62,197 bases of DNA, filler included, from a bacterium (GCA_040757115.1; 7 parts of 7 records of this genome joined end to end with filler, not necessarily neighbours in it); one strand, 5' to 3'; shown: positions 143 to 53,955, counted from the first letter of the whole stretch. The notes: a model not told the origin generated them from the letters alone. Translations and numbers: made by a program.

Positions 143-349
143 GTAACTATTCAGCCACAGAGGCACAAAGACACAGAGATGTTTAAGATGAAAGATTTCA
201 ATGAGATAACCAGAGAAAATCCTCGGATGTGCGATAGAAGTATATAAGCAAATTCCTCTTGTTAAAAGATGGCATCAAAAGGTATATCTTATAAAATGCT
301 CTGTGTCTCTGTGTCTCTGTGGCAAATCTTCATACCTCTGAATAGTTAC
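143..349. mobile_element. MITE with IS66-like ends carrying an internally deleted GxxExxY gene
   Basis: TIR GTAACTATTCAG/CTGAATAGTTAC; perfect 8-bp TSD ATTTCGTT (135-142, 350-357); remnant MKDFNEIT..KILGCAIEVYK//LLKDGIKRYIL* at 188-294. Confidence 0.85.
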
Positions 350-382
350 ATTTCGTTTATCGTCTATCGTTTAAAACTATAA

Positions 383-643
383 GTAACTATTCAGCCACTG
401 ATTAACACGGATTAGCACGGATAAATACAAAGGTCAAAAGACAGAAGTCAGAGGCGGGTGTTCCCCGCTGGCGGGGGTTAGGGGTGGAAATTTCCTCCAC
501 TGGCAGAGAATCAAGAAGGATAGAAAATAAAAGTTAGAAGGAGAGAACCCTTCAGCCTTCAGCCTAATTACGGACACGGAAAACGGACACGATTTACGAA
601 TTTTCAGTGTTTCATCCGTATCCATCTGTGGCTGAATAGTTAC
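383..643. mobile_element. MITE with GTAACTATTCAGCCAC ends
   Basis: 16-bp perfect TIR; ACACGGAT-type arms; no TSD visible. Confidence 0.7.
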
Positions 644-799
644 GATTTGGTTTATAATTCTTCGTGTCCTTCGTGGTTTTAAAAGATGTGAGGAAGGTTA
701 ATCTAACCGCACAGGTGGAAAATTTTTATGATTTTGTCCTAATCGAGCAGATTTTCGATACTAATTTTTGGATTTTTTTCAAAAGAGCCGAATTTTTTG

Positions 800-829
800 T
801 TGACACAAGGATAAAATTTGTGGTAAAAT
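800..829 (+). promoter_or_regulatory. sigma70-type promoter
   Basis: TTGACA-N18-TAAAAT with TG extension upstream of gspK. Confidence 0.5.
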
Positions 830-838
830 ATCCTCACA

Positions 839-1924
839 ATGGGCACAAATGGCTATAATACCCAAAACACTCAAAAAGCAATTTCCTATCAGTTAAAAGG
901 TGCAGTACTGATTGTTACTCTCTGGATATTAGCTATCTTAACCCTATTGGCTATCTCTTTTGCACATCGAATGAGGGTAGAGGTAAAATTGACCAGATTT
1001 CAGGTCGATTCATTAAGGGCATTATATTTAGCTAAAGCAGGGATTAATCATGCTATGGCAGAATTGAAAAAGGATGCTAATGAATACGACAGCCTTAATG
1101 AAGAGTGGAATCTAAAAAAAGAGGTGGGATTAGGAAAAGGAAGGTTTATCTGTCAGATAAGTGATGAGGAACGGAAGATTAATCTGAATTGTGGCACCAG
1201 AACTGTTCTGGAGAAATTGCGCGGGTTGAATGTGAATGAGGGAATAGTCTCCTGCTTGATTGACTGGCGTGATGTAGATGATAAGGAAGAATACTGTGGA
1301 GCGGAGGATAAGTATTATCAAAGTATTGGTAAGAGCTACCACTGTAAAAATAACCCTTTTCAATCAATAGAAGAATTACTCTTAGTCAGAGAGGTCACTT
1401 CAGAAATACTTTATGGTGAGGATATGAATAATAATGGCATTTTAGATCCTAATGAGAACGATGGAGATGCCTCTTTTCCTAATGATGATATGGATGGAGA
1501 GTTGGATTTTGGAATCAGTAGATATGTTACCGTCTACTCTACCGGTATGGTTAATTTTAACACCGCTGAGGTAGAAGTATTAGAATGTCTACCATTCCTG
1601 GATAAAGAATTAGCTCAGGGAATTGTGGATTATCGGGATCAAAGGGAGTGGAAATATGATGAGAATGAGTGTCCTTTCCCAAATTTTAAGGCACTAATGA
1701 ATGTCGATGAGGTAAAGAATAAATATGACATCTATAAAGATAAAGATACACCTGAAGGTAAAAAAATGCAGGAAGAATATAAACAGTTGGAGCAAGATTA
1801 TTTTACTCCAAAATCTCGTAATTTTAAAATTACAGCTACTGGTATAGTAGATAAAGTGATAAGAAGGGTTACTGTAATTTTCGATAGGGAAACTGAGAAG
1901 ATGAAGTATTATCGGGAAGATTAA
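839..1924 (+). CDS. gspK: type II secretion minor pseudopilin GspK
   Basis: KG|AVLIVTLWILAIL prepilin-like N-terminus; DEERKINLN, IDWRDxD, PFQSIEELLLV and VNFNTA motifs. Confidence 0.88.
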   Translation: MGTNGYNTQNTQKAISYQLKGAVLIVTLWILAILTLLAISFAHRMRVEVKLTRFQVDSLRALYLAKAGINHAMAELKKDANEYDSLNEEWNLKKEVGLGKGRFICQISDEERKINLNCGTRTVLEKLRGLNVNEGIVSCLIDWRDVDDKEEYCGAEDKYYQSIGKSYHCKNNPFQSIEELLLVREVTSEILYGEDMNNNGILDPNENDGDASFPNDDMDGELDFGISRYVTVYSTGMVNFNTAEVEVLECLPFLDKELAQGIVDYRDQREWKYDENECPFPNFKALMNVDEVKNKYDIYKDKDTPEGKKMQEEYKQLEQDYFTPKSRNFKITATGIVDKVIRRVTVIFDRETEKMKYYRED

Positions 1925-2049
1925 GGACGCTATTTTAGAGAAGGCTTAGATGTACAGAGAAGTTTCTTTTTCCCATTTGACAAATTATTTAGTGTCTATG
2001 CTACACTATAACTACACAAAAATTACTTTTACGAGGAGGTTGAGGTAAG

Positions 2050-2958
2050 ATGAGTAAAAAAGCATTAAGTGGTTTGATGATCGGGTTAATAGTAGGAGCT
2101 TTTACTTGGGTTTATGCTATGGAAGAAGAGCCTAAAGAGATTGTAAGGGAAGAAGTAGATAAAAGCACTCCCGCGCCAGAGCAGAAGGAAGAAGAGAAAA
2201 AAAGTCCTCTATGGGGTATAAGTGCAGAAAAGATAAAGGTGGAAAAAATTGTTCAGTTGACTACAGATGGAGGGGTTGAATCAATTCAATTTTCTCCTGA
2301 TGGTAAGAAGATTGTAATATCAGGTAGAGGTGAAACATGGATAATGGATGCTGATGGGAAGAATAAGGGGACACTCTCTAAGAATGCACTCCCTAATTGG
2401 ATTGGCAAGCAAGTATCCGGAAGTCCACTTTATTCTCTTTCCTCACCAGATGGAACTAAAATTATTGAACTGTCTCATGACAAGTCACATAAGTATTGGG
2501 AGGCTTCACCATATAGATTAGGGAAAATAAAGAATTTGACTACGGGTAAAGAAATTATATTCCCAACTAAAATGTATTCGAGTATGATTCAATGGTCGCC
2601 AGATGGACAAAAAATTTATTATAATGCCCCTGGTGCTTACAGTTATATCATTGATGTTAATGGGACTATTTTAACCCGTTTTTATCATGATGGAGAGTTT
2701 GTTTGGGCACCAGATAGTATTAAAGTTGCATATAGTGATATGGAGATTGAAGGAGACCTAGGAGATTTGGTGGGTTCGGAGATTTATGTGATGAATGCCA
2801 AAGGTACTGGTAAGATTCAATTAACTAAGACCCCTGGTAAGACGGGAATTGAGGTATCTCCTGTCTGGTCTCCTGATGCAAGTAAGATTTTATATAGACG
2901 AGAATATGATGGAAATTATTTTGTCTTAATATTAGGTGTTAAGGAGGTTGAAGAATAA
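2050..2958 (+). CDS. TolB-like/PD40 beta-propeller protein, exported
   Basis: Signal peptide; repeated [FW]SPDG motifs; GAGGAGG SD. Confidence 0.85.
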   Translation: MSKKALSGLMIGLIVGAFTWVYAMEEEPKEIVREEVDKSTPAPEQKEEEKKSPLWGISAEKIKVEKIVQLTTDGGVESIQFSPDGKKIVISGRGETWIMDADGKNKGTLSKNALPNWIGKQVSGSPLYSLSSPDGTKIIELSHDKSHKYWEASPYRLGKIKNLTTGKEIIFPTKMYSSMIQWSPDGQKIYYNAPGAYSYIIDVNGTILTRFYHDGEFVWAPDSIKVAYSDMEIEGDLGDLVGSEIYVMNAKGTGKIQLTKTPGKTGIEVSPVWSPDASKILYRREYDGNYFVLILGVKEVEE

Positions 2959-2960
2959 TA

Positions 2961-3611
2961 ATGACAAATCCAAAACTAAGGGTTATTTTTATAATAGGTT
3001 TTCTGCTTCTATTTAGTCCTCCATCATCTCTATTTGCTGGTCTTCTAACAGGCAAGAGATTTTGTATCGACCCTGGACATGGTGGGACGAAAGCAGATGT
3101 CCCTCAAGGGGTAAACTATAATTTAGGTGCAGGTGGCTATAATGGCTCTGCATGGCCTGATGAAAAGGATCTCGTTCTTGATTGTAGCAAATGCCTATGG
3201 CTCCTCTTGAAGGAAACAGATGCCACTGAAGTAAGATTGACAAGGATAGAAGATGTATATACCTCTTATCATAGAAGAGTTACAGTAGCCAATGGGACTC
3301 CAACTGGTACACCAGCAGTCGATATGTTTATCTCTGTCCATCACAATGGGGTTAGTAACACCGAGAGTAATTATACCCAGACAAATTATGACCCCTCTCC
3401 TGGTACATGTAGCACAAATGGTACTAAAAATCATGAGTTAGCTGTATATACGGTTAATGAGTTGGATTCTCTACTTCGCATAGGTAAGTACAAAAGTAAT
3501 GATGGAACATTAGCCCGAAAATGGGGTAAAAATGGGGTGTATGTTTTACATCATATCACAATGGTAGGTGAATTAACAGAGGCTTCATTCATTAGTTGCC
3601 GTACCGAATAG
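2961..3611 (+). CDS. N-acetylmuramoyl-L-alanine amidase (Amidase_3) domain ending at an in-frame TAG
   Basis: IDPGHGG, EKDLVL, SVHHN, LTEASF; frame stays open past TAG 3609-3611 into the next ORF. Confidence 0.85.
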   Translation: MTNPKLRVIFIIGFLLLFSPPSSLFAGLLTGKRFCIDPGHGGTKADVPQGVNYNLGAGGYNGSAWPDEKDLVLDCSKCLWLLLKETDATEVRLTRIEDVYTSYHRRVTVANGTPTGTPAVDMFISVHHNGVSNTESNYTQTNYDPSPGTCSTNGTKNHELAVYTVNELDSLLRIGKYKSNDGTLARKWGKNGVYVLHHITMVGELTEASFISCRTE

Positions 3612-3683
3612 AACAAATTAGTCACTTCTAACAATGAATTTATTGATTACAATGAGAATGACCATTGTGATCGTGAGGAGTAC

Positions 3684-6600
3684 ATGTCCTATGCTATTCT
3701 ACTTGGTATTTTAGATTATTATGACAAGTCTCATCCAGTAGTTCATACACCTGTAACTACAGCCAATGTAAATCAAGCAATAACTATTACGGCTGAAGTG
3801 ATAGACTTTGCTACAGTTACTTTATGCTATCGAACTTCACCCGGAGGGACCCACACATTTACAAAAGTGCCTATGGTTAAAGGGGCAGAGACTACGTGGT
3901 CAGCAACTATTCCAGCCTCAGCAGTAACCTTATCTGGAGTAGAATATTACATTGCAGTAACTGAGGAATATCTTCAGACTTCAGCTCCATATTTGATAAC
4001 CGTACTCTCTCCACAGGATGGAGCTACACTCAATACACCAAGACCAACCTTTGATTGGAGTGATTCACCCTATACCTCAAAATACACAATACAGGTAGCC
4101 ACATCCACTACCTTTACTAATCCTGTGATTAACGCTACTATTACAACTTCATCATATACTCCCAATCTTGACCTTTCTACTAATACAACCTACTACTGGA
4201 AGGTGTATACTTCTCATTCAGATAGAATTAGTACCTGGACTTTACCATGGAGTTTTATGATAGGTCCCCCTCCAACTTCTCCACCTACAATTGTAAGTAC
4301 AGCTCCAGTTGATGAAGCTCAAAATGTCCCAGTAGACACAAAAATCGTTGTCACCTTCAGTCTTCCTATGAATAAAGCTGATACAGTAGCGGCCTTCTCC
4401 ATTTCCCCTATGGATATCAGATTAATAAATCCAACTTGGAGTGATAATGATACTGTCGTAACTTTTGATTTAAGCGATAAATTAAAGATGAATACAACTT
4501 ATAGAGTAACAATTACTACTATAGCAAAAAGTGCAAATAACGTTTCGTTAGTACAGAATTATAATTGGACATTTACCACTATTCAGAGATGTTGGAGTGA
4601 GGATATAAGATTGACTAATACATCAGGTTACTCCCAATATCCTGCAATTGCTGTAGAGGATAAAAACGTCCATGTTGTCTGGATTGATAAGCGTACTGGA
4701 AGTTGGGAAATTTATTACAAGAAAAGTATGGATGGTGGAAATACGTGGGAAGCTGATGAAGAATTGACTAATTTCCCAGACACCCCTATGCCTGCGATTC
4801 CTCTTAGAGATCCTCGTATTGTTGTAGAGAATAATAATATTCATCTTGTCTGGAGTGAAGATAGAGATGGAAATTGGAAGACTGAAATTTATTATAAGAG
4901 AAGTACCGATGGTGGGAATACATGGGAACCTGAGAAAAAATTAACTAATACTCCAAAAGAATGTGAAGCCCCTACTATTGACATAGATAATGGAAATGTT
5001 CATATAATCTGGGAGGATGATCGAGATGGTGCTTCTCAACTTTATTATAGAAGAAGTACTGATAACGGATTCAGTTGGAACTCTGAGACACGATTGCCTA
5101 ATGTTAGCTATGGACATGATCCCGTGGTTATTGCAAAAGATAATGTTGTTCATGTGCTCTGGAATGATTTTTTCTATCCTAATCACGCAATTTGTTATAT
5201 GAAAAGTATTGACGGAGGACAGAGTTGGGGTTCTAGAGTAATGTTAGCCAGTTACAAAGGAGACATGTGGACACATGATATGGCTATAAATGGTAATAAT
5301 ATTCATGTGGTTTGGATACAAGACTATTTTATAGAATATCACCGGCAGTGGGCAATATATTATACAATGAGTACAGATGGTGGAAATAGTTGGAAAAATA
5401 ATGTAATCCTGAAAGATTCAGGAAATTATGACGACTCTGTCATAACAGATACATCTACAGGTGATATTTATCTAGCTTATAAAAGTTATGAGGATGAAGA
5501 AAGTTATATTTATTATATAAAAAGTATGGATAACGGAGTTACATGGGAAGATGCTATAAAGTTAAGTACTGGCTATTCACCTCAAATAATTTCAGATAAT
5601 AATGATGTACATATAGTTTGGGATGACAATCGTGAGGAAGATTGGGAAATCTATTATAAATCCTATACTTCAGGTTTTGATGTTCCTCCAATTACTCCAA
5701 CAGATTTAAATTTCGAAGCAGGATATGGAATTGTACGCTTAAGTTGGACGCCTAATCCAGAAACTGATATAGCTAAATACAATATCTATAGAGATGATAC
5801 CAAAATAGGAAGTGTTACTATTCCATTTTATCAGGATACCAATGTAGTCAGTGGCAAAACCTACATATACACTATAACTGCTGTAGACAATGCTGGTAAT
5901 GAAAGCAGCCCACAGCTTCCTAATACTCTGAATCCCCCACTTATAGTTCAGGTTCCATCACCTATTCCATTAACTGTTAATCCAGCTATTGATAGTACCC
6001 CCAGTTATTCACCGGATGAGTCTACAATAATCTTTTATACTGACCGTAATGGAACAGGGGATATTTATGGAATGAATTCTGATGGAAGTAATTTAATAGG
6101 TATTATGGAAGACTCATATAATAATTATTCTCCTGATTGTTCTCCTGGTGGAGATATGCTTGCTTTTGTCTCTAATAGAAGTGGGAATGATGACATCTGG
6201 GTATTGAAGAATTTAAATAAAGTTATACAAGGAAATTCACCTGAATTAGTTCCATTAGATGTGGGTGGACAGGGTTGTGATTCTCCAAAATGGTCACCTG
6301 ATGGTAAAATGATAGCTTTTAATCATACTACAGGAGAAAAGAAACATATTTTTGTAGTAACGAATGTCCAGGATATAATTTCAGGTGATGCTACTACTGC
6401 TATAGTAAAACAAGTGACCGATGAAATTGGTGATGATTCAAAACCAATGTGGTCACCTGATGGAGCTATGATTGCTTATACTTCCAAAAGAAATCTTAAT
6501 AATTCGGATGTCTATGTAGTTAAGAATGTGTTAGATGTTATCTACAATGCAGAACCTATTTTAGCTCAATTAACTAATGATTCATCAGAGGATATGGGAT

Positions 6601-9084: not shown

Positions 9085-9291
9085 TGGAGATTAAGGAGAT
9101 AGGGAGATATTATTAAAAAAATTGAAATTAGTAGAAACTAATAGAAATTTATGGAAATTTGTTGTTTCCCACAATCAATTTCTACCTATTTCTATAAATT
9201 TCAATCTATATCTTATCTCCATATCGCCCTTATCTCCTTATCCCCTTTCTTACACTTTGTCTCTGCGGTAAATTACCACCTGAACATTTAC
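9085..9291. mobile_element. partial copy of the ~240-bp MITE (same family as 25074-25312)
   Basis: Near-identical to the 25074 copy; ends CCTGAACATTTAC. Confidence 0.8.
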
Positions 9292-9293
9292 CG

Positions 9294-20380: not shown

Positions 20381-21217
20381 ATGCGTTTTTTAGATGTTAA
20401 AACAGATTATGCCTTCAAAAAGGTTTTTGGCTCTCAAGGAAGTAAGGATATACTTATTAGCTTTCTTAACTCGGTGATTGATTTTAAAGAGACTGAAAAA
20501 ATCGTTGATTTAGTAATCGTTGACCCCTACCAAATACCATTAATCAAGGGGATGAAGGATACCTATGTCGATGTTAAAGCCAAACTCTCAAACCAGAAGA
20601 ATGTCATTATCGAGATGCAGGTTTTGAATGTAGAAGGGTTTGAGAAAAGGATTTTATATAATGCGGCTAAGACATATTCAGCTCAGCTAAAAGAGACAGA
20701 ATCATTTACCAGCCTTGAACCTATTATTGCTCTAACCATTACGGACTTTATCATGTTCGAGGATGTAGATAAGGTTATCACCTATTTCAATCTCATTGAA
20801 AAGGAGACTTTAATCAAATACCATGATGAAATCGAACTTGTTTTTATCGAATTGCCCAAATTCAAGAAGAATGAGGATGAGCTGGATTCAATCAAAGACA
20901 AATGGATATATTTTATAAAGAATGCAGGCAGACTTGAATATACTCCAGAGAGCTTAGTTAAAGAGATAGAAATAAAGGAGGCATTTGAAATAGCCAATAC
21001 TGCGGGGATGAGTGAAAAGGAGTTAGAAATTCAATATAAGCGGCACGATTTTATCCGAATGCAAAGAGGTGCGATAGAGTTTGCCTTAAAACAAGGGTTA
21101 AAACAAGGAATACAACAAGGCAAAATAGAAGTAGCGAAAAGTCTTTTGAAATTAGGGGAGAAAGTTGAAAAAATATCCCAGGTAACGGGATTAACAATAG
21201 AGGAAATTAAGGGGTAA
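20381..21217 (+). CDS. Rpn family PD-(D/E)XK nuclease / putative transposase
   Basis: DVKTDYAFKKVFG, DVKA..IIEMQV, FIELPKF, GLKQGIQQG tail; AGGAG SD. Confidence 0.9.
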   Translation: MRFLDVKTDYAFKKVFGSQGSKDILISFLNSVIDFKETEKIVDLVIVDPYQIPLIKGMKDTYVDVKAKLSNQKNVIIEMQVLNVEGFEKRILYNAAKTYSAQLKETESFTSLEPIIALTITDFIMFEDVDKVITYFNLIEKETLIKYHDEIELVFIELPKFKKNEDELDSIKDKWIYFIKNAGRLEYTPESLVKEIEIKEAFEIANTAGMSEKELEIQYKRHDFIRMQRGAIEFALKQGLKQGIQQGKIEVAKSLLKLGEKVEKISQVTGLTIEEIKG

Positions 21218-21451
21218 CTATTCACCACGAAGAACACGAAGAAAATTAGATGGTCTCTGAAATTAATCACAAACTACACAAAGAATACACAAAGAAATAA
21301 AGGGAAAAAATTTATTCTCTCAAAAATCTTTGACTCTTTTGTGAAACTCTTTGTGGTTAAAAAATTGTAGTTATTGTCAGACACTACCGAAAATTACAAG
21401 ACATTAAATTCCATTTCGTGTCCTTCGTGCTCTTGCGTGGTAAATAGTTAC
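21214..21451. mobile_element. GTAACTATTCACCACG MITE with a nested element at 21249-21388
   Basis: Outer TIR with 1 mismatch; nested element has 8-bp TSD GAAAATTA; outer left end supplies the Rpn TAA. Confidence 0.75.
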
Positions 21452-21905
21452 CGAATGGATTAAATAATCAGGGCACTCCTACGGAGTTAGAAAACATTTT
21501 TTGTGATTCAGTTCTACAAACAGTTAGAGCTCCTACGGAGCTAAAAGAGATGTCCTATAAAAAGACAAAATTCAGCATGGTAGAGGTAATCTGTTTGTAG
21601 AGAGAGATTTCACGAAGTTCAGAGGTTTAAAAAATTGCCCTCCACCCCTCTTTAAAATGGACAAAAATTGAGAAAAAGGAACCAATTGAGATTTGTAAGT
21701 TTTTTAAAATTAAGGACTTGTGTAACAGGAGGGCAATAAGAAAAGAGGTGTGTTTGTAAGTTTATTTAAATCAAGGTGTTATGAATTTCGTGAAAGGCAT
21801 GTTGGAGATAGAAGATAGGAGGTAAGGAAATAGGCGTGAGGAGTGATGTTTTCCTTACTATCTACCTTCTACTCTCTACTTCCTATTTTCAGGGGAACAT
21901 CAAAA

Positions 21906-25073: not shown

Positions 25074-25312
25074 GTAAGCGTTCAGGTGGTGTAACAAAAG
25101 GAGATGTGGAGATTAAGGAGATAGGGAGATATTATTATAAAAAAATTGAAATTAATAGAAACTAATAGAAATTTATGGAAATTTGTTGTTTTCCACAATC
25201 AATTTCTACCTATTTCTATAAATTTCAATCTATTTCTATTATCTTATCTCCATATCACTCTTATCTCCTTATCCCCTTTCTTACACTTTTGATATATAGC
25301 CTGAACGGTTAC
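25074..25312. mobile_element. complete ~240-bp MITE (partial copies 9085-9291, 26846-26987, 53317-53442, 53543-53665)
   Basis: TIR GTAAGCGTTCAGG/CCTGAACGGTTAC; long imperfect internal hairpin; copies sit at contig breaks. Confidence 0.85.
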
Positions 25313-25815: not shown

Positions 25816-26171
25816 GAAAATATTTATACTCGATATTCAAGTTTTTTTAAGATTAAGTGGTTTATCCTTTTTTAACCGCAAAGAACGCAAAGAAATTAAC
25901 CGCAAAGAACGCAAAGATTATAGTGCTCTGTTAAGATTGAATTTGCATGTTAGTTAGGTGATCGGTAATCAGTAATCGGAGATAACAGGCCATTGTTTTC
26001 TCTTCACCGATAACCTGATAACCGATAACTTTCTAAACATAGCAAAGCAAACTTAACAAAGCAATAGGTTGTTCACCACCTTATTTTCCTTCCTTTGCGT
26101 CCTTTGCGAAATCTTCCTTTGCGCTCTTTGCGGTTAAATCTTTATACCTTTAAAAAACTTGAACATCAAGT

Positions 26172-26522
26172 GATAGGATTATTAATGCCTGTATTAATGT
26201 CCATAAAAAGTTAGGACATGGTTTTCTGGAGAGCATCTATCACAATACCTTGAAGGTTGAGTTTGCAAGACAGAACATCATCTTTGAATCAGAAAAAGAA
26301 GTCAAGATATTCTATCAAGGTGTTGAGGCTGGGATTTATAGACTTGATCTTTTTGTTGAAGATGAGATTGTGGTAGAGATTAAAACTGTTGAGGAGATAA
26401 GTGGGAAGTATTATAATCAGGTTAGATCATACCTTAGAGCAGTAGATAAAGAAATAGGGTTACTGGTAAATTTTGCAGACTCCAGGATTGATGTCCGAAG
26501 AGTGGAGCAAGAAAAAGTTTGA
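26172..26522 (+). pseudogene. GxxExxY protein (PD-(D/E)XK-like), 5'-truncated
   Basis: DRIINACINVHKKLGHGFLESIY..RLDLFVED..VEIK..Q..SYL..GLLVNF; start lost next to the element at ~25828-26171; followed by CCTGAACGGTTAC at 26598-26610. Confidence 0.85.
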
Positions 26523-27403
26523 GCCATTTCTCCAATTCTCCCTTTTCCCCATTTCTCCTTGTTTACACTTCTAATATATAGCCCTGTAATGTATAGCCCT
26601 GAACGGTTACGCAAATTTGCCAAAGTTCAGTAAAATTATCTCTTTCCTTTCAGCGTTAAAATACTTGAAGTCCTTTTTGAAATTTGATTTGTAATTTTGC
26701 ATTTTGATATTTGATATTTGATTTAATTTCAGGTCTAACTCTCAGAATATTTTTTACCCATAAATTTTACACGCCCCCTTTCAGAATTAATCCTTGACAA
26801 AAGCTTGATTTTATGGTATCCTAACATTAAGGGATATAATAATTTGTAAGCGTTCAGGTAGTGTAACAAAAGGAGATGTGGAGATTAAGGAGATAGGGAG
26901 ATATTATTAAAAAAATTGAAATTAATAGAAACTAATAGAAATTTATGGAAATTTGTTGTTTTCCACAATCAATTTCTACCTATTTCTNNNNNNNNNNNNN
27001 NNNNNNNNNNNNNNNNNNNNNNNNNNNNNNNTTAATTAATTAANNNNNNNNNNNNNNNNNNNNNNNNNNNNNNNNNNNNNNNNNNNNATTTTGATATTTA
27101 TATTTGATATTTAATATTTGATATTTGATATTTATTTGTTGTCTCCCTCAAATCCTATTTTGCAGAACCCTATACACTATTTTAACCTTTATGCTAGATT
27201 AAGACACCACCAAAGTCTGATGATTTTTTTTGCAACTTATCCTTTGAAGTTGAGTTGATAAAAAATGCTTTACCTATTTTCTTCCCTTTGTGTCCTTTGC
27301 GATTTATCCTTTTTTAATCGCAAAGAACGCAAAAGAAATCCACCGCAAAGAACGCAAAGATTAAAGACAAAAGGAATCATAAAAAATTCACGAAACACCA
27401 GGT

Positions 27404-28781: not shown

Positions 28782-29047
28782 GTAACCGTTCAGGTGATAA
28801 TTCACCGCAGAGACGCAAGAGTTCGCAGAGAAGACATAGAAATAAATTAGATAACATAAAAGATTATTGATGCAGACATGGAAATACTTATGACCTGCTT
28901 GCCCAATGTTCAGCAGGCAAACCAGATTTGTTAATCAATTTTAATGTTATTGTACTCAAGAGCTTGCCCTGATGAAAATCAGGGATGTTAAGCGTCTCGT
29001 CAATAGATTTTAATTTTTTTCTCTGTGTCTCTGCGGTGAACAGTTAC
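28782..29047. mobile_element. IS66-like-end MITE with GxxExxY remnant
   Basis: GTAACCGTTCA/TGAACAGTTAC; perfect 8-bp TSD TCCAAACT; remnants EIN*IT*KII and LLINFNVIVLK..KRLVNRF*. Confidence 0.88.
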
Positions 29048-30274: not shown

Positions 30275-30528
30275 GTAGCCGTTCACCGCAGGGATACAGA
30301 GACGCAGAGAAAAAATTAAAAACTATTTACCAGACGCAGAATTCCATCACGGATTTTCATCAGTGCAAGCTTTTGAGGACCGACATATCATGATTGATTA
30401 ACAAATTTGGTTTTGATGTCCTATGTATTACAAAGATTACCTCAATAATCTTTTCTGTTATCTGATTTATTTCCATGTTTTCTCTGTTCCTCTGCGTCTC
30501 TGCGGTAAATTACCACCTGAACGGTTAC
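30275..30528. mobile_element. inverted relative of the 28782 MITE
   Basis: GTAGCCGTTCA/CCTGAACGGTTAC; TSD GTTTTTCG/GTTTTTTG. Confidence 0.75.
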
Positions 30529-30903: not shown

Positions 30904-31423
30904 TATAGCACTTATTAATTGGAATTTGACGTAACCGTTCAGGTCTTGAGTTACTAATATTGATTGAGATTTCGGAACACTTACAAAATATTGAATGTAG
31001 AATGTAGAATATCGAATGTAGAATGTTCAAAGTATAAAAACGGCCAAACAGAAAAATCCAGAAACTTCATCATTCTACATTCAGTATTCTACATTCGATA
31101 TTCAATATTATTTCTGTTACCTGAACAATTACAGAAAAAGAATTATATGCCATCAAAACATGAAGGTTGAAACCTTGTTTTTAATTTGATTTTCTTAGTG
31201 TCTTTGTGGCTGAACGGTTACAATTTGACATAGATATGACTATGAAATTCCAAATCACAAATTCCAAATTCCAAATAAATTCAAATAACCAAAATTCAAA
31301 ACATTACTCCCATAGTTTGTATTTAGGACTTGAAATTTGGTGTTTATTTGAAATTTGGTGCTTGGGATTTGGGATTTTTTTACTTATCCACTCTGAGTAA
31401 AGTTTTGACTAATAACTGCTATA
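30904..31423. mobile_element. TATAGCA-ended MITE containing a nested IS66-like-end MITE (30931-31221)
   Basis: Outer TIR TATAGCA(C/G)TTATTA; inner GTAACCGTTCAG/CTGAACGGTTAC with perfect TSD AATTTGAC. Confidence 0.8.
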
Positions 31424-42427: not shown

Positions 42428-42585
42428 GTAACCGTTCAGGTAGTCTGGTATCTGGGTGTCTAAGTGTCTGGGTTACATAGATTACCAGACACATAGACAC
42501 CCTTTACGCAAAATTGTAGGATTTGTTACTATCCTGATTTCCTGGCTGTTAACTGATTGCTGATACCTGATGGCTGAACGCTTAC
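42428..42585. mobile_element. IS66-like-end MITE
   Basis: GTAACCGTTCAG/CTGAACGCTTAC; TSD CTTTTTAT/CTCTTTAT. Confidence 0.8.
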
Positions 42586-42605: not shown

Positions 42606-42772
42606 GTAACTATTCACCACGAAGAGCACGAAGGACACGAAGATGTTACAGAACAAGTCTCTTTATGCCTTCTTTCAATCTTTCCACATTGAAATTTATC
42701 AACAGACTAACCTTAATATTTGCTAACTTCATTAGATATTTCATCAAATTTCACTTCGTGCCCTTCGTGGTT
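42606..42772. mobile_element. MITE with GxxExxY C-terminal remnant; right TIR missing
   Basis: GTAACTATTCACCACG; minus-strand MKLANIKVSLLINFNVERLKEGIKRLVL*. Confidence 0.75.
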
Positions 42773-42784
42773 TAATCTCTTTTA

Positions 42785-43308: not shown

Positions 43309-43309
43309 A

Positions 43310-43570: not shown

Positions 43571-43666
43571 AGAACCATCTCCTTTTTATTTCTAATTTCC
43601 AATTTTAACTTCATTTTCTAACCGCAAGCTTTCAAACAAAAGTGAACCGTCCCCGAAATTCATAAC

Positions 43667-45542: not shown

Positions 45543-45674
45543 TTTCTTTACCTCCTGAAGTTCTTTTTCTTAAATTACTTTAATTATATCATAAATATTC
45601 TACGGTGTCAATATTTTTAAATTAATGGGTTAGGTAAAAGATAAGAGTTAACATCCTTCAATTCAAATAAAGTA

Positions 45675-45703
45675 TTGACATCCGCTCAAAAATATGTTAT
45701 TAT
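45675..45703 (+). promoter_or_regulatory. sigma70 promoter
   Basis: TTGACA-N17-TATTAT. Confidence 0.6.
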
Positions 45704-45735
45704 TTACTCTAAAGTAAGTTACTAAGGAATAATCT

Positions 45736-47154: not shown

Positions 47155-47180
47155 GAATATCAAGGGGCACCATCTCCTAT

Positions 47181-48080
47181 TTACGCTCTTGGATGATACT
47201 TTGCATGAAGTGTCTTCAATCTTGCCTGATGAATATGCGTATAAATTTGTGTTGTCGTAATATTCACATGCCCTAACATCTCCTGAACACTTCGCAAGTC
47301 AGCATCATTAGATAATAAATGTGTTGCAAATGAATGACGCAAGGTATGAGGAGAAATTTCCTTCTTTATTCCACACAATCGAGCATATCTTTTGATAATC
47401 TTCCACAGTGCCTGTCTTGTTATTCCCTTTCCTCGCCAATTTACAAACAGATTTTCGATGATATTATCATTTTTAACTAAATATGGTCTGGCTTTTTCCA
47501 GATATTCTCTCAGGTAAGTTAATGCTGTTTGACCGATAGGCACTATCCTTTCTTTTGAGCCCTTGCCTAAAATATTTGCAAACCCTATTTCTAAATTGAC
47601 CTGCCCCACATTTAAAAGTATAACCTCTGAAACCCGAGCACCTGTGGCATACATAAATTCTAACATCGCTTTATCTCTTAGACCTAATGGTTGGTTAATA
47701 TCGGGTTGATTTAATAATGATTCTATCTCTTTATAGGTTAAAAACTTAGGTAATTTACTCACCGCCCATGATTTTGTATATGGAGATTCTAAATAAAGGG
47801 TTGGATTATAACTAATTTGTCCCTCGTTCTCCAGAAATCGATAAAATGCCTTAATACTTGCTACCTTTCTACTGATACTTGATGATTTTAAATGATTATT
47901 TCTTAGATAGGTAAGATAATTTAAGACATTTATCTCTTTTGAATCAACTGATTGTATGTTATTTTTTTCAAGGAACAAGATATATTGTCCAATATCACTC
48001 TCATACGCAAAGCAGGTATTAGGCGATAATCCTCGTTCTATACCCAGATAATTTATAAAATTTTCAACCTTATCTTTCAT
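47181..48080 (-). CDS. xerD: tyrosine recombinase XerD
   Basis: ERGLSPNT, LRDKAMLE..ATGARVSE, SPHTLRHSFATH, HAKYHPRA. Confidence 0.9.
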   Translation of the reverse strand: MKDKVENFINYLGIERGLSPNTCFAYESDIGQYILFLEKNNIQSVDSKEINVLNYLTYLRNNHLKSSSISRKVASIKAFYRFLENEGQISYNPTLYLESPYTKSWAVSKLPKFLTYKEIESLLNQPDINQPLGLRDKAMLEFMYATGARVSEVILLNVGQVNLEIGFANILGKGSKERIVPIGQTALTYLREYLEKARPYLVKNDNIIENLFVNWRGKGITRQALWKIIKRYARLCGIKKEISPHTLRHSFATHLLSNDADLRSVQEMLGHVNITTTQIYTHIHQARLKTLHAKYHPRA

Positions 48081-48691
48081 TGTAAAAATGGGTTAGTTTT
48101 TCTTTCCTCTCCAATTGTTGAAATATTCCCATGTCCTGGGTAAATAATCGTTTCATCTTCTAAGATTAAAAGGTGTTGATTAATAGAATCAATTAAGGTT
48201 TTATAATCTCCACCAGGAAAATCTGTTCTCCCAATTCCACCAGCAAATAATGTATCGCCAGTAAATATAAATTTATCTCCAGATAAACAAATACCCCCTT
48301 GTGTATGACCGGGGGTATGGATGACTTTTAATTTTAAATGACCTGTTTCAATATACTCACCATCTTCTAACAATCTATCTGCCGAAGTAATTATCGGTTC
48401 ATAAAAAAATGCGGATAGGTTTGAGGAAGAATCAGTCAGCATCACGGCATCTTTTTTATGGATAAGTATTTTTGCGCCCGTAGCATTTTTCAGCTCATTA
48501 TTACCTGCAATATGGTCACTATGACCATGTGTATTAATAATATAAATGAGTTTAGTTTTTAATTCATTTAATTTATCAAGGATTAGGTAAGCATCCCCAC
48601 CAGGGTCAATAACAATTGCCTCATTTCCATCTTCTAAAATATAGCAATTACTTTCCATAAAGCCAACAACTAATTTATGTATATTATTCAT
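48077..48691 (-). CDS. MBL-fold metallo-hydrolase
   Basis: THGHSDH, HTPGHT, GDTLF, YPGHG. Confidence 0.92.
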   Translation of the reverse strand: MNNIHKLVVGFMESNCYILEDGNEAIVIDPGGDAYLILDKLNELKTKLIYIINTHGHSDHIAGNNELKNATGAKILIHKKDAVMLTDSSSNLSAFFYEPIITSADRLLEDGEYIETGHLKLKVIHTPGHTQGGICLSGDKFIFTGDTLFAGGIGRTDFPGGDYKTLIDSINQHLLILEDETIIYPGHGNISTIGEERKTNPFLQ

Positions 48692-48752
48692 CCTCTCTAC
48701 TCTCTCTTCTTTCCTCTTTCCTCTCTCTTCTCTCTTTTCTTCTCTCTACTCT

Positions 48753-49196
48753 CTACTCCCTACTCCCTACTACCAATGTTACTGGTCCATCATTATGAAT
48801 ATCCACTAACATCATTGCCCCAAATTCACCCTCGGCAACTTTAATATTTGTTTTTTTCATCGTTTCTATAAATTTAATGTATAATTCTCTGGCTAATTCC
48901 GGCGGAGCGGCTTGAGTAAAATCAGGTCTTCTGCCTTTACGACAATCACCATATAATGTAAATTGCGAAATAATCAATGCCTGTCCTTTAATATCTAATA
49001 ACGAGAGATTAAATTTATTCGATTCATCTGCGAATATTCGTAAATTAACAATTTTATTGACTAAATACTCAACATCCTTAATCGTATCCTGATGTGTTAT
49101 TCCTAATAATATCACTAAGCCGTTATCTATCTTACCAATTATTTTATTATCAACTGATACCGAGGCTTCTTTTACCCGTTGTAGACAAGCACGCAT
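48753..49196 (-). CDS. dtd: D-aminoacyl-tRNA deacylase
   Basis: QRV, SQFTL, GRRP, NDGPVT. Confidence 0.95.
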
Positions 49197-49198
49197 AT

Positions 49199-49522
49199 TT
49201 ACTTTCCCTTTTTTACTGATTCATTTAGCCATCTTAAATAATCTTCATTCCCGCCAATAATAGGTAAGGCAATTATTTCAGGAACGGTATATGAATGAAC
49301 CTTTTTGACCATAGTTATTAATTTCTTTAATAGAGATTTTCTTGTCTTAATTATCAACAAACTTTCCGCAGATTTATCTATTTTATTTTCCCACCAGAAG
49401 ATAGAATGGATATGCGGAATGATATTTACGCAAGCGGCGATTTTATCCTCCACTAATTTATTAGCAATTTTTGTTGCCTCTTCAGTCTGAGGTGTTGTAA
49501 TTAAAACTACAATATATTTCAT
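49199..49522 (-). CDS. cutA: divalent-cation tolerance protein CutA
   Basis: [19 protein letters not shown]. Confidence 0.93.
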
Positions 49523-49546
49523 TTCTTTCACCGATTACTTTCTTTT

Positions 49547-49621
49547 TGGTGGAGGTGAGGGGAATTGAACCCCTGACCTCTTCCATGCCAAGGAAGCGCG
49601 CTCCCGCTGCGCCACACCCCC
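49547..49621 (-). tRNA. tRNA-Ala(GGC)
   Basis: Cloverleaf; anticodon arm CTTCC-TTGGCAT-GGAAG; G3:U70; GGTTCAA; encoded CCA. Confidence 0.96.
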
Positions 49622-49866
49622 ACATAAGTAAACGTTGAACGGAGCCTGACGAAAGAAAGAATTTTCTCTGCTCCATAGTCTTAGTGTCGTGTTGAACAAA
49701 TAACGCACGGAATTTAATTCTGGTAACTGGTGATTGGTAATTGGTAATTAAATACCGTCCGATTGAGCTTATGACGAAGCCATTTAACCAATTACCAGTT
49801 ACCAGTTATCCGTTTGCAGGTTATGAAATCTGATGATACGCCGTGCAAAACTTACTCAACACCACA

Positions 49867-50226
49867 TTAGCTCCTTGCATTATGCTCTATCACCTTCGCA
49901 TCTGCCCATAGTCCTTCCAAATCATAGAATTTCCGTGTCTCTTCATAAAATATATGGATAATCACATCACATAAATCTATCAATATCCAATTTCCCCATT
50001 CATATCCTTCGATATGGTGAATTTTAAACTTTTCTTTAGTTGCTAATTCATCTATTGCATCCGCAATCGCTCTAATTTGAACATCTGATGTGCCACTGCA
50101 AATAACAAAATAATCCGTCATATCCGTTAATTTTTTCATTTCTAAAATAACCACATCATTTGCTTTTTTATTAAGTGCCGCCTCGGCACAATGTAGGGCT
50201 ATTTTTTTAGCCGATTTTATTGGCAA
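49867..50226 (-). CDS. rsfS: ribosome silencing factor
   Basis: DYFVICSG, WILID, FYDLEGLWAD. Confidence 0.95.
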   Translation of the reverse strand: MPIKSAKKIALHCAEAALNKKANDVVILEMKKLTDMTDYFVICSGTSDVQIRAIADAIDELATKEKFKIHHIEGYEWGNWILIDLCDVIIHIFYEETRKFYDLEGLWADAKVIEHNARS

Positions 50227-50436
50227 ATTATCATCTCCTTTAAATAAGAGGAACGCTCTCGGATGAAATTAAGCGGTAATTTTATTAGCCTTCGCACACC
50301 GCAAATTTTTCCTTCACCCCCACTTTTTAAGTAGAGAGTAGAGAGTAGAAAGTAGGAATTTTGTTTTATTTACTTCCTATTTCCCATTTCTTACTTCCTA
50401 TTTTTATCCGAGAGGCTTCTAAGAGAAGGTTAAGGT

Positions 50437-51039
50437 CTATATATCATAATACTTTATCTTATCCTGTAAGGTATTTATCAATTCATTCCTTGCCTCAATG
50501 GAACGAGGATGAATACTACCATTGGACTTTAAAATATCAAGAATCTTGAAATTTATTATCCAAAAAGTAACTATTCCCAGCTCTGTTATCGCAATATTTT
50601 TTAATCTTTGATATGATTTTTCTTCACCGTTACTTTTCATATACTCCATATAGTCAGCAACATAAACTATTTTCTCCAGAGTAGATGAATTTTTATCTAA
50701 TGTTGGATGAATTCTGATTGCTCGTAGGATTTCCTTATCTGTAATTCCAAATTTTTCTTGAGCTAACACCATTCCTACGGGAGCGTGCCATAATTGTTTC
50801 TCCTTACTCTCCAGTTCATCTAAAATAATTCCATATTTTTTTAAGTAATCTTTTAATAATTCATCCGATAAATCCTTGGCGCAATCATGTAATAAAGCGG
50901 CTATCCTTACCTTATGTGGCTCAACAACATAATGTCGGGCTAAAAAAGAGGCTAAATTTTGAGTATTAAGACAATGATTGTATCTTTTTTGAGAAAGAAT
51001 GTCCTTTAATTTTAACTCAATTTTATCTAACTCTACCAA
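50437..51039 (-). CDS. yqeK: YqeK HD-domain Ap4A hydrolase
   Basis: RYNHC, ALLHDCAK, LWHA, IVYVADYME; next to rsfS. Confidence 0.85.
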   Translation of the reverse strand: MVELDKIELKLKDILSQKRYNHCLNTQNLASFLARHYVVEPHKVRIAALLHDCAKDLSDELLKDYLKKYGIILDELESKEKQLWHAPVGMVLAQEKFGITDKEILRAIRIHPTLDKNSSTLEKIVYVADYMEYMKSNGEEKSYQRLKNIAITELGIVTFWIINFKILDILKSNGSIHPRSIEARNELINTLQDKIKYYDI

Positions 51040-51157
51040 TTTTCTACCTCTTGAAAAATCAGGGATTTTTTTACTTATATGTAATAATAACAGAAAACAG
51101 AGAAAAAGTCAACGAAAATTTTATTGTAAGCGGATTGAACGGATTGAGCGGATTTTT

Positions 51158-51369
51158 GTAACTATTCACCACGAAGAGCACGAAGGGCAGGGAGATGTTA
51201 CAGAACAAATCTCTTTATGCCTTCTTTCAATCTTTCCACATTGAAATTTATCAATAGACCAACCTTGATATTTGCCAATTTCATATATGTCAATATTTGA
51301 GCTTCATGAATTCGATAATTCATCAAATTTCACTTCGTGCTCTCCGTGTCCTTCGTGGTGAATAGTTAC
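51158..51369. mobile_element. MITE with deleted GxxExxY gene, nested in a GTAAGCGGATT hairpin element (51126-51415)
   Basis: TIR GTAACTATTCACCACGAAG; 7-bp GATTTTT duplication; KFDELSN//HEAQILTYMKLANIKVGLLINFNVERLKEGIKRFVL*. Confidence 0.85.
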
Positions 51370-51540
51370 GATTTTTTTTATTTCTTTTTCCGCTAAATCC
51401 GTTAAATCCGCTTACTAAATCCACCCGTTTACTATTAAAAATCTACTTTCTTAATTTTCTACCTGCACAGGTCGAATTTTTTAGTTGCTTTTTTAAGAAA
51501 TTAAATGTATAATATGGTTTGTGCCCCACGAAATTAAAAA

Positions 51541-51643
51541 TTGGTAACTGGTAACTAATTATTGGTAATTGGTAACCAATTACCAGTTACCAAATTAACT
51601 GGTAACTAATTACCAGTTACCAATTACCAGTTACCAATTACCA
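51541..51643. repeat. inverted heptamer array (TGGTAAC/T vs TTACCAG/A)
   Basis: Seen directly; similar array at 49721-49810. Confidence 0.8.
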
Positions 51644-51664
51644 AATGAAAGGAGGTAATGAAAT

Positions 51665-52657
51665 ATGAGTGAATCTAAAGCCAAAGTAGTTAAATATAAA
51701 CTAAGAACACATCCCAATGCTGATACCCTATCTATCGCGGATATAGAAGGGGCAACATGGCAAGTAGTTGTTCGCACCTCAGATTTTGCACCAGAAGGGA
51801 CAGCAATCTATATTCCTGTAGATACAGTTGTGCCAGAAACTCCAGAATTTGAGTTTTTAAGAGATAAAAATTTCCGGGTTAAAGCTATAAGACTTCGAGG
51901 AGAATATTCCTATGGTCTCCTGATTCCAAATAAAGATAATTTACCTGTTGGAGAGGATGTAACCGATAAAATTGGGATTAAAAAATATGAACCACCAGTC
52001 CCAATCGATATGCAAGGTGAAGTTGTGCCTTATGCTGAGGTAGATTGGATTTGCAAATATACGGATGTAGAACGATATGAGAATTTCCCGTATGTATTTA
52101 AAGACGGAGAAGAAATTATTGTTACAGAAAAAATTCATGGCTCAAATTTAAGGGTTTCTAAAAACGGTAATAATCTCTTCGTCGGTGGTCATAACTGGAT
52201 GTGGAAAGAAGATGAGAGAAATTTATACTGGAAGGCAATTAAACAAAATGGCTATGATAAAATTTTATTAGAAAAATTAGCCGATAAAACGGTTCTCTTT
52301 GGCGAGGCCTATGGTAAAAAAGTCCAAAACTTGCAATATGGGCTAAATACACAAAAAATAGTCTTTTATGATGCTTTTTTTGCGGAAAGATATCTTAATT
52401 GGGATGAGTTTATCGAATTAATGAAACAGCTGGGGTTAAGTGAACATATTGTTCCTGTCCTTTATCGCGGGGGATATGATTTGAATAAAATTAGAGAATT
52501 CGCTCAAGGAAATACATTACTCAGTGGTGACCATTTAAAAGAAGGGGTAATAGTTAAACCTGTTATAGAAAGAATGGACGGTGAATTAGGAAGAGTAATA
52601 TTAAAGTTTATTAATCCTATGTATGAAACAAGTAAAGATAGAACAGAATTCCATTGA
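51665..52657 (+). CDS. RNA ligase (ATP), Rnl2 / DRB0094-like
   Basis: HPNAD, RLRGEYSYGL, TEKIHGSN (motif I), FGE, FYD, EGVIVKP, LKFIN. Confidence 0.9.
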   Translation: MSESKAKVVKYKLRTHPNADTLSIADIEGATWQVVVRTSDFAPEGTAIYIPVDTVVPETPEFEFLRDKNFRVKAIRLRGEYSYGLLIPNKDNLPVGEDVTDKIGIKKYEPPVPIDMQGEVVPYAEVDWICKYTDVERYENFPYVFKDGEEIIVTEKIHGSNLRVSKNGNNLFVGGHNWMWKEDERNLYWKAIKQNGYDKILLEKLADKTVLFGEAYGKKVQNLQYGLNTQKIVFYDAFFAERYLNWDEFIELMKQLGLSEHIVPVLYRGGYDLNKIREFAQGNTLLSGDHLKEGVIVKPVIERMDGELGRVILKFINPMYETSKDRTEFH

Positions 52658-52664
52658 AAAAAGA

Positions 52665-52693
52665 TTGACAATTATTATTTTTGGGCGTATAAT
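52665..52693 (+). promoter_or_regulatory. consensus sigma70 promoter
   Basis: TTGACA-N17-TATAAT. Confidence 0.75.
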
Positions 52694-52715
52694 TTGGTAA
52701 TGGAGGTGATAATAG

Positions 52716-53291
52716 ATGAAGAAAATAATTTTGGGATTTTTGATTCTAACTATCGCTGGTTGTGGTCAGGTAAATCCCTATCGAGTAACTAATTTCTTTG
52801 TAGATAAAGAGGCAGTATTTGAATTACGCGCTCAACGAATAGCTGTTTTACCTTTTGAAAATACAAGCGGTGATTATTCTGCCGGACCAAAGGTTACTGA
52901 TGAATTTAATCTACAACTGGGGAAATTGGGGGATTTTGATTTAGTTGAAAGAATAAGAATTGAGGCACTTTATAAAGAACAGGATTTTGACCCAAACCGA
53001 ATTGACCAGGAAACTGCCGTCAAAATTGGTAAAATGTTAGGTGCTCATGGTGTTATTCTTGGCCAGGTGATTGAATATAGCAAAGGTAAAGTCGGAATTA
53101 GTATCAGATTGGTAAATGTAGAAACCGGTAAACAAATCTGGCAGGCAAGAGATACACTTTATGGTGGAGATAGACGGGTGAAGGTATTAGTTGATGGCTT
53201 TTGGCAAAAAATGAGATTGAAAAGGGATAAGGAATTTTTAACCCAAATCCTATGCCAATTATTAGCCGAAACCTTTAAAGAAGGCAGATGA
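52716..53291 (+). CDS. CsgG/HfaB/LpoB-like lipoprotein
   Basis: IAGC lipobox; IAVLPFEN, LVER, KIGKMLGA, RLVNVETG. Confidence 0.8.
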   Translation: MKKIILGFLILTIAGCGQVNPYRVTNFFVDKEAVFELRAQRIAVLPFENTSGDYSAGPKVTDEFNLQLGKLGDFDLVERIRIEALYKEQDFDPNRIDQETAVKIGKMLGAHGVILGQVIEYSKGKVGISIRLVNVETGKQIWQARDTLYGGDRRVKVLVDGFWQKMRLKRDKEFLTQILCQLLAETFKEGR

Positions 53292-53955
53292 ATTAAGAAA
53301 TATGCCTGTAAAATCGGTAACCGTTCAGGCTATATATCAAAAGTGTAAGAAAGGGGATAAGGAGATAAGAGTGATATGGAGATAAGATAATAGAATATAG
53401 ATTGAAATTTATAGAAATAGGTAGAAATTGATTGTGGAAAACNNNNNNNNNNNNNNNNNNNNNNNNNNNNNNNNNNNNNNNNNNNNTTAATTAATTAANN
53501 NNNNNNNNNNNNNNNNNNNNNNNNNNNNNNNNNNNNNNNNNNTTTCCACAATCAATTTCTACCTATTTCTATAAATTTCAATCTATTTCTATTATCTTAT
53601 CTCCATATCACTCTTATCTCCTTATCCCCTTTCTTACACTTTTGATATATAGCCTGAACGGTTACAAATGAATTTGGTTTTGGACCACGTGGATATCTTT
53701 TTTGCATAATTCTTTCCTCCTTAAAATTTCTATGCCCACGTGGAATTATCGTCATTTTATCAGCAAAACTTTAGAAAAAACTGTGAAAAAATTTACTTAA
53801 CACAGTACTAGGATATATCACCAATTTTATACTCTATCCTCGCCCCGTTTAGAAATGAATTTCTAACGGGGCTCGTATTGAGGAGGTATAACTGAAGAGC
53901 CGAATGGGAAGAATCCACAAGTTCGGTTCTGTGAGGGGCATTAAGCACTGAGGAG

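Follow-up and report, generated by a model that had tools for sequence, protein, structure and literature searches.

The window analysed here, 62,197 bases of bacterial DNA (GCA_040757115.1), contains a family of miniature elements that are probably non-autonomous transposons of the single-open reading frame (ORF) branch of the IS66 family: MITEs (short for miniature inverted-repeat transposable elements) or, where a gene survives, mobile insertion cassettes (MICs). A first-pass annotation of the same DNA had reported such a family, with interiors that carry GxxExxY nuclease-gene modules, and the follow-up confirmed that the family is real. Its members are 90 to about 560 bp long and have an 11-13-bp inverted repeat, GTAAC(C/T)(G/A)TTCA(G/C), at the ends. 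The annotation's reading, that hairpin-armed GxxExxY modules lie between IS66-type ends and have spread non-autonomously, is supported by the IS66 ends, an 8-bp target-site duplication, copy number, empty sites, and internal deletion. The inner unit is broader than the annotation had described: it consists of arms with either a GxxExxY or a four-helix-bundle gene, and mostly occurs without these termini.

The window is not a single locus. It is composed of seven contigs of a fragmented metagenome-assembled genome (MAG), each ca. 8.7-9.0 kb, and therefore nothing can be read across the spacer joints. No rRNA gene was found in the window, while Por_Secre_tail domains were present among its gene content (Pfam). 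Contig 4 was found in three public runs labelled groundwater metagenome, from one groundwater study (Logan contigs); there was no RNA run among those listed. The comparison set comprised 24 genomes of the same phylum and 16 from other phyla. Closest to the window is genome G001 (4.7 Mb, 770 contigs), which has 20% of sampled 31-mers in common with it, and orthologous stretches of the two are 96-99% identical. Pairs of ends and flanking duplications were tallied in a 331-kb set, consisting of the window contigs and 20 stretches of G001.

The pattern GTAASYRTTCA had 22 exact matches in the window versus a mean of 0.27 in shuffled sequence, and none of 100 shuffles reached 22. All but one of the matches (21 of 22) were element ends, GTAA[CG][CT][AG]TTCA, beginning with GTAA; the match at 32223-32233 lies inside an HTH_17 gene (32074-32289; E 1.6e-17) and was rejected as a coding coincidence. 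A search with up to three mismatches added ends at 9291, 30275, and 31132. More than a dozen complete or partial elements with these common ends had been claimed, and we found nine two-ended elements (158-291 bp) and six partial ones, four of which are cut by contig ends; the stretch 53317-53665 is no single element, but the ends of two contigs (53317-53442 and 53543-53665) that break in one repeat and are not joined. All insertions in the window lie between ORFs. Every window element has copies in G001, where 800 + 792 exact ends were counted versus 13 + 7 for a reversed control pattern. The motif was well above control in most of the 24 same-phylum genomes (for example, 473 + 428 in G012, 245 + 245 in G008, and 169 + 181 in G003; further counts were 200 ends in G019 and 60 in G007), and near the control level in G013, G015, G016, and all 16 genomes of other phyla. 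The 31 adjacent pairs of ends in the 331-kb set fall into 14 interior families. The interiors had been described as unrelated; they are not wholly so, as an arm architecture is common to them.

Exact 8-bp duplications flank the elements at 143-349, 28782-29047, and 30931-31221 (Table 1). The flanks of 30275-30528 and 42428-42585 match at seven of eight positions, and a 7-bp repeat, GATTTTT, surrounds 51158-51369. All of these duplications had been annotated and were borne out, with the amendment that 30931-31221, whose duplication is perfect, is a composite of one complete element and a second right end. In the 331-kb set, 57 + 52 ends formed 31 adjacent forward-reverse pairs; ten had flanks identical at all eight positions and three at seven, while in an offset control (the same test 10 bp further out) no pair matched at seven or more. 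The longest exact flanking repeat was 8 bp, giving a duplication length of exactly 8 bp and a frequency above chance. When one mismatch was tolerated in one end, 19 duplication-supported pairs were obtained, 15 of them exact. The duplication sequence differs at every site. In G012, which belongs to another family of the same phylum, 5 of 16 pairs matched at eight and 2 of 16 at seven positions, and none of the control pairs at seven or more.

Empty sites, one paralogous and one orthologous, were found. An uninterrupted paralogue in G001 (contig C2, L017, about 14060-14100) reads through the AATTTRAC target of the 30931-31221 insertion, as do contigs of run X1. The insertion itself lies in what remains of a hairpin cassette (31222-31427 and about 30900-30930). 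No insert is present at 49529/49530 of the window, and at the orthologous site on G001 contig C100 there is one of 270 bp, in which the left terminus GTAACTATTCAG is combined with GTAGGAAG arms and the relic of a four-helix-bundle gene (PF05635, E 6.2e-8). Joints in Logan contigs, which cannot separate alleles from paralogues, gave no evidence on allelic empty sites: among 15 of 43 joints, no clean joint skipped a whole element, and the summed depth of repeat bins was far above that of unique bins (about 300).

The GxxExxY gene at 26163-26519 matched PF13366 (E 1.8e-34; 119 bits versus a cut-off of 22) and TIGR04256 (E 1.6e-36; 125.2 bits versus a cut-off of 35), and is 97% identical to an intact two-ended G001 copy (L047), with a ratio of nonsynonymous to synonymous substitution rates (dN/dS) of 0.47. 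As annotated, this nearly whole gene is followed by the same right terminus (26600-26610). Another repeat (25824-26171) has displaced its 5' end together with the arm and the terminus on the left. On the minus strand, PF13366 matched at 51201-51329 (E 1.8e-10; E 4.7e-12 with a hidden Markov model (HMM) built from the lineage) and at 42649-42750 (E 1.6e-4). With the Pfam and lineage HMMs at E≤0.01, no relic was found in 143-349, 28782-29047, or 30275-30528. The latter two align at the DNA level to a 464-bp G001 element (L032:1440-1903) that carries an intact 125-aa GxxExxY gene. Common to this element and both window copies are the terminus, a linker, an CCGCAGAG arm, the first ca. 60 and last ca. 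70 nt of the ORF, an arm, and a terminus, while the catalytic middle of the ORF is missing from the window copies, as the annotation had proposed. These alignments show that short copies arise by internal deletion from gene-bearing copies. Four of five annotated GxxExxY remnants were thus recovered, those at 51158 and 42606 by PF13366 and those at 28782 and 30275 by DNA alignment; the fifth, in 143-349, is a weak match to a possible N-terminal relic (E 0.092 among 179 peptides).

PF13366 has 89 matches in G001, 17 of them full-length and open and the rest fragments. Four of the 17 full-length genes lie between two termini (with one mismatch or fewer), and the 563-bp G001 element L039, with an intact GxxExxY gene, has a perfect 8-bp duplication, TCCCATTT. 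An HMM-detectable GxxExxY relic was present in 3 of the 19 duplication-supported elements, and no more than roughly one quarter to one third of elements carry recognisable relics. The window elements showed no relic of a four-helix-bundle gene.

Intact GxxExxY copies, paralogues within one genome included, are under purifying selection (dN/dS 0.03-0.16 in 10 pairs, five of which have dS below 1; four further pairs were saturated). Residues G24, E27, Y30, D67, E77, and K79, which make up the G-x-x-E-x-x-Y motif and the predicted catalytic residues D...E-x-K, are invariant in 23 sequences. The predicted structure is a minimal PD-(D/E)XK fold (model pLDDT 95.7). Its best structural matches were PD-(D/E)XK nucleases, Cas4 SSO0001 (Z 9.5) and Hjc (Z 7.0) among them, and CinB/CidB nuclease domains and BglII/BamHI were further neighbours. 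Since these matches are generic for the superfamily, no specific function was drawn from them. At E≤1, no solved structure matched the GxxExxY protein by sequence, and PF13366 is listed as "Unknown" (PMC3424549).

In G001, every intact gene examined, 17 of them for GxxExxY and 14 for PF05635 (23S_rRNA_IVP; 41 matches in all), is enclosed by inverted arms that consist of three or more tandem 6-10-mers (for example, CACGAAG, CGCAGAG, GTCGTAA, and GGTAACTG). The best 18-nt complementarity between a gene's own flanks was at least 15 for 30 of 31 genes, versus 50 of 930 mismatched pairs. The inverted low-complexity arms annotated in the window are present there, and a long hairpin fold was obtained for each of the nine complete elements (z -4.4 to -15.3, with 20 mononucleotide shuffles per element). 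Arms nested in arms were also observed. The window and G001 have unequal numbers of short tandem repeats of the arm type (an additional 56 bp in the window at 48704-48759, and an additional 26 bp in G001 at 51126), which suggests that arms evolve by slippage. The cassettes are intergenic or located beside protein or tRNA genes. Other terminal-repeat classes, at least three in number (CTTATCCTTACCCAC, TAGTGTCGTGTTGA, and GCTCTCGGAT), also enclose cassettes, and arms flank GxxExxY genes in other phyla, too (G028, G026, and G030); in G028, a GxxExxY cassette (L139) lies between GTAACTATTCAG and a degenerate right end. Cassettes without these ends may go back to old insertions that retained gene and arms as their termini decayed, or they may have their own way of spreading.

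Termini beginning with GTAA are a trait of the IS66 family in ISfinder. PF03050 was matched in 16 of the 24 same-phylum genomes and in none of the 16 others. In G007, a genome of the same order, a 1,505-bp insertion sequence (IS), L065, has GTAACCGTTCACA at both ends and a single 476-aa ORF that matches DDE_Tnp_IS66 (PF03050; E 4.4e-39), zf-IS66, and NF033517 (270 bits versus a cut-off of 180). Another IS, L064 (G008), has GTAACTACTCAGG ends and a 541-aa transposase, and GTAACTATTCAGC ends surround a decayed transposase gene in L066 (G018). The sequence GTAACCGTTCA was present at both ends in 9 of 50 near-full-length metagenome relatives (of 79 in all), with transposases 49-90% identical to that of L065. 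The miniature elements and the IS66-family ISs are identical in 12-13 nt of the terminus, even at 49% transposase identity, and the left end of type B elements (Table 1) resembles that of L065 beyond the terminus (by eye). An IS66 transposase with the same terminal repeats, which the first-pass annotation had named as a thing to look for, was therefore present in L065 and the nine metagenome relatives, and was not found in the window or G001. Table 2 of PMC3281130 gives an 8-bp duplication for the trap-captured IS66 members ISPpa5a and ISPpa7.

Based on the shared termini and the 8-bp duplication, we infer that the elements are mobilised in trans. An IS66-family transposase supplied in trans would bind the termini, make 8-bp staggered cuts in the target, and move the elements. 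The interior is a separate module, that is, a GxxExxY or 23S-rRNA-intervening-sequence-type four-helix-bundle gene, or its remains, between two inverted arms. At the DNA level, pairing of the arms may bring the two termini together; at the RNA level, the arms may form a long stem around the ORF, like that of rRNA intervening sequences. Since the cassette of arms and gene is also found lacking these ends, carrying four-helix-bundle genes, or set in other terminal-repeat classes, the direction of the "capture" is only putative.

Several results weigh against mobilisation by an IS66-family transposase. No duplication at seven of eight positions or better was present around 18 of the 31 adjacent pairs, and the sole orthologous filled/empty pair (C100) has one recognisable terminus and a 7-bp repeat, ACTGATT. 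No IS66 transposase was found in the window (Pfam, 46 ORFs; tblastn with four transposases, best E 0.29), nor any transposase inside the elements (82 element peptides; tblastn). G001, with ca. 800 elements, has one IS66-type transposase, 27% identical to that of L065 and split over contigs C698 (L001) and C113 (L003), with ends, GTAATTGTTTACC and GTAACTGCTCATC, that differ from the consensus; GTAAT-type ends like these are a minority in the 331-kb set (15 pattern matches, ca. five of them element ends by eye, versus 109 for GTAA[CG]). PF03050 was not matched in G012 (901 ends), G003 (350 ends), or G019 (200 ends), all fragmented MAGs, in which a missing match does not show absence. Of the full-length ISs, eight could be read on both flanks, and none of these shows a duplication (matches at 0-5 of 8 positions); several take up almost the whole of their contigs and may have chimeric flanks, but two with flanks over 1 kb show no duplication either. 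Finally, 13 of 17 intact GxxExxY cassettes and all 14 four-helix-bundle cassettes in G001 are not between two such termini, so IS66-type ends do not explain all cassette spread.

The G001 transposase is preceded by a DUF2080 ORF, and its closest relatives, with 73% identity to it, come from MAG contigs under the title Nanoarchaeota (L062 and L063); its presence could reflect contamination, mis-binning, or transfer.

The abundance of cassettes without IS66-type ends could mean that the hairpin cassette itself is the mobile unit and these ends one shell among several, with the GxxExxY nuclease promoting spread or retention, e.g., by cutting a hairpin or cruciform, which would lead to entry at stem-loop tips. 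We consider this unlikely. It agrees with the arms owned by all 31 genes examined, with arms around GxxExxY genes in other phyla, with nested arms, and with cassettes housed in other terminal-repeat classes; the low dN/dS of intact genes, compared with 0.47 for the 5'-truncated window copy, and the invariant D67, E77, and K79 of the modelled fold also agree with it, though fold matches of this kind are generic. No cassette-only insertion with defined junctions was found, however, and four-helix-bundle cassettes have the same arms without a nuclease. G019 and G007 have 200 and 60 ends, respectively, without a GxxExxY match at E≤1e-10, and 16 of 16 G012 elements are without a GxxExxY relic. In addition, the 8-bp duplication and the ends common to IS66 ISs are what a DDE transposase would give. 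A broader proposal, taken as one claim, is that GxxExxY and four-helix-bundle genes are cargo of an ancient, cross-phyla class of selfish "hairpin cassettes", of which 23S rRNA intervening sequences would be a special case, that ride in several unrelated transposon shells (the IS66 type being the clearest), and whose nuclease acts on its own hairpin or cruciform for insertion or retention at stem-loop tips. We regard this proposal as rather doubtful.

It is very improbable that the mover is a DDE transposase of another 8-bp-duplicating family, such as ISL3 or IS256, and that the likeness to IS66 ends is coincidental. The lack of an IS66 transposase with matching ends in the window and G001, as well as the full-length IS66 copies without duplications, would fit such a mover, but 12-13 nt of the terminus are identical to those of ISs whose only ORF is an IS66-family transposase, and the likeness of type B and L065 left ends extends further. 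The only other transposase of the window, DDE_Tnp_1 (56894-58195), belongs to an IS4/5-type IS (56768-58779) whose 37-nt terminal repeats are unrelated, for which reason this IS was ruled out as the mobiliser. All copies are intergenic hairpins with arm repeat numbers that vary between the window and G001, properties also expected of structured intergenic repeats, similar to repetitive extragenic palindromes or terminators, spread by recombination or duplication. This explanation is disfavoured and has almost no chance of being correct: the 8-bp duplications differ from site to site and are missing from the offset control, empty sites exist, and a transposase-bearing relative (L065) has the same ends.

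As transposons of the IS66 type, the window elements resemble single-ORF IS66 members, i.e., those without tnpA and tnpB, in their GTAA termini and 8-bp duplication, and ISs with identical termini encode an NF033517/PF03050 transposase with zf-IS66. We take such single-ORF members to be the group named ISBst12. Unlike IS66 ISs, the window elements are 158-291 bp long, have no transposase, and share with them 11-13 nt only, and the full-length ISs found here are without duplication. The elements are like bacterial MITEs in short size, terminal inverted repeats, duplications, copy number, intergenic location, hairpins, and internal deletion, but the deleted parent here carries a nuclease-family passenger gene and not a transposase, and one terminus goes with at least 14 interior families. 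The term IS66 was absent from a term search of a 2024 review of prokaryotic MITEs (PMC10969869). MICs, first named in Bacillus cereus, have IS-type ends around a non-transposase gene and are mobilised in trans according to the definition in PMC3281130, which the G001 elements L039 and L032 fit. In contrast to MICs, the passenger here is a self-contained hairpin cassette also found outside the shell, and the window keeps only a truncated gene copy (26163-26610). In 23S rRNA intervening sequences, as in the cassettes, a PF05635 ORF is enclosed by terminal inverted repeats, which pair into a long stem (PMC4990558); the origin of these intervening sequences is there called unclear since 1990. The cassettes differ in being intergenic, not in rRNA genes, and in having arms of tandem short repeats, and the likeness is one of architecture only. 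For the GxxExxY cassettes, we know of no described intervening-sequence counterpart.

The first-pass annotation knew of no description of this arrangement, and searches of the full-text literature, supplements excluded, likewise found no account of GxxExxY or four-helix-bundle cassettes inside transposon ends. Neither mobility nor arms are treated in a literature passage that names GxxExxY, and in the portions of the literature on IS66 and MITEs that were covered, IS66 was met in tables only.

The GxxExxY (TIGR04256) and 23S-rRNA-intervening-sequence four-helix-bundle proteins are large families, distributed over many phyla, without an assigned role. In this lineage, both gene families come as hairpin-armed cassettes. 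Some of these cassettes lie within transposon ends that are flanked by clean 8-bp duplications, and copies with gutted genes have risen to hundreds in a genome; an IS66-type transposase acting in trans is the proposed route of spread. If the ca. 800 elements of G001 average ca. 240 bp, they would make up about 4% of its 4.7-Mb genome (an estimate). Four contig ends of the window break inside miniature elements, which makes the elements a visible cause of MAG fragmentation. As a natural system, the lineage also lends itself to studies of the function of the arms and of the nuclease.

Table 1. Miniature elements and other features of the window (positions counted from its first base; +/-, strand).
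Feature	Position	Strand	Description
Complete 207-bp element	143..349		Ends GTAACTATTCAG; arms CACAGAG/CTCTGTG; 8-bp duplication ATTTCGTT; hairpin z -8.4; G001 copies at 87-98%
Complete two-ended 261-bp element	383..643		CACGGAT-type arms; no flanking duplication; hairpin z -6.2; G001 copies 84-90%
Type B element, right part	9085..9291		GGAGAT arms; at contig start; end GTAAATGTTCAG
Two-ended 246-bp element	21214..21459		Nested arms, CACGAAG outer and CACAAAG inner; right end with 1 mismatch; flanking duplication absent
Complete 239-bp type B element	25074..25312		Flanks GATTTTC / GATTTTT; hairpin z -15.3; 16 G001 copies at 95-99% among the matches listed (40 of 943 candidates scored)
Nearly whole GxxExxY gene, GGAGAA-type arm, and right terminus (26600-26610)	26163..26610	+	Gene 26163-26519
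Type B element, left part	26846..26987		Cut by contig end
Complete 266-bp element	28782..29047	+	Duplication TCCAAACT; internal-deletion derivative of GxxExxY element; also present at orthologous G001 site C206
Complete 254-bp element	30275..30528	-	7/8 duplication; internal-deletion derivative of same GxxExxY element as 28782-29047; 22 G001 copies of its family at 88-97% among the matches listed (40 of 922 candidates scored)
Composite 291-bp insertion	30931..31221		Complete 202-bp element 30931-31132 and right end of another, 31133-31221; duplication AATTTGAC
Complete 158-bp element	42428..42585		7/8 duplication; G001 copies 99% and 97%
One-ended element	42606..42780	-	Left terminus, CACGAAG arms, C-terminal GxxExxY relic 42649-42750; no right terminus; cassette orthologous in G001 C313, with the terminus there replaced by another repeat
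Empty site	49522..49538		Orthologous G001 locus C100 has 270-bp insertion
Complete 212-bp element	51158..51369	-	7-bp repeat GATTTTT; C-terminal GxxExxY relic 51201-51329
Type B element end	53317..53442		At contig end
Type B element end	53543..53665		At contig start
Contigs	1-8984, 9085-18001, 18102-26987, 27088-35900, 36001-44676, 44777-53442, 53543-62197		
Spacers	8985-9084, 18002-18101, 26988-27087, 35901-36000, 44677-44776, 53443-53542		N runs around TTAATTAATTAA

Repeats of other terminal classes were also observed. A 189-bp repeat at 49682-49870 has TAGTGTCGTGTTGA... termini and GGTAACTGG-type inner arms, with more than 35 copies (86-97%) among the G001 matches listed. In elements at 36959-37163 and 44887-44901, CAATTCAC-type arms are bounded by CTTATCCTTACCCAC inverted repeats; in G001 (L035), these termini are present on either side of an intact GxxExxY cassette. 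A 175-bp insertion at 50255-50429, with termini GCTCTCGGAT.../...ATCCGAGAGGC, GTAGAGA arms, and an imperfect flanking repeat of ca. 10 bp, belongs to yet another class and is missing from the orthologous G001 site. In G001 (L027:5601-6111), an IS66-type miniature element is interrupted by a 273-bp element that has CGACCTGTGCGGTTAGG termini and an A/T duplication of 7-8 bp.

The stop codon of an Rpn-family/PDDEXK_2 "putative transposase" gene (20312-21217; TIGR01784, E 2.3e-53), of which several near-identical partial copies are present in G001, is the TAA within the GTAA of the element at 21214. DUF488 paralogues (28323-28805 and 29062-29574) flank the element at 28782-29047, and the predicted GTG start of the former falls inside it.

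In the last contig, a group II intron domain match at 53895-53977 (41.2 bits versus a gathering score of 40) adjoins a stretch of 57% G+C (54000-56300; the window is ca. 35% G+C). No reverse-transcriptase match was seen, and an ORF at 54761-56299 has a weak Beta_helix match only. In the IS4/IS5-type IS at 56768-58779, the DDE_Tnp_1 ORF (56894-58195) lies between 37-nt inverted repeats that are 86% complementary.

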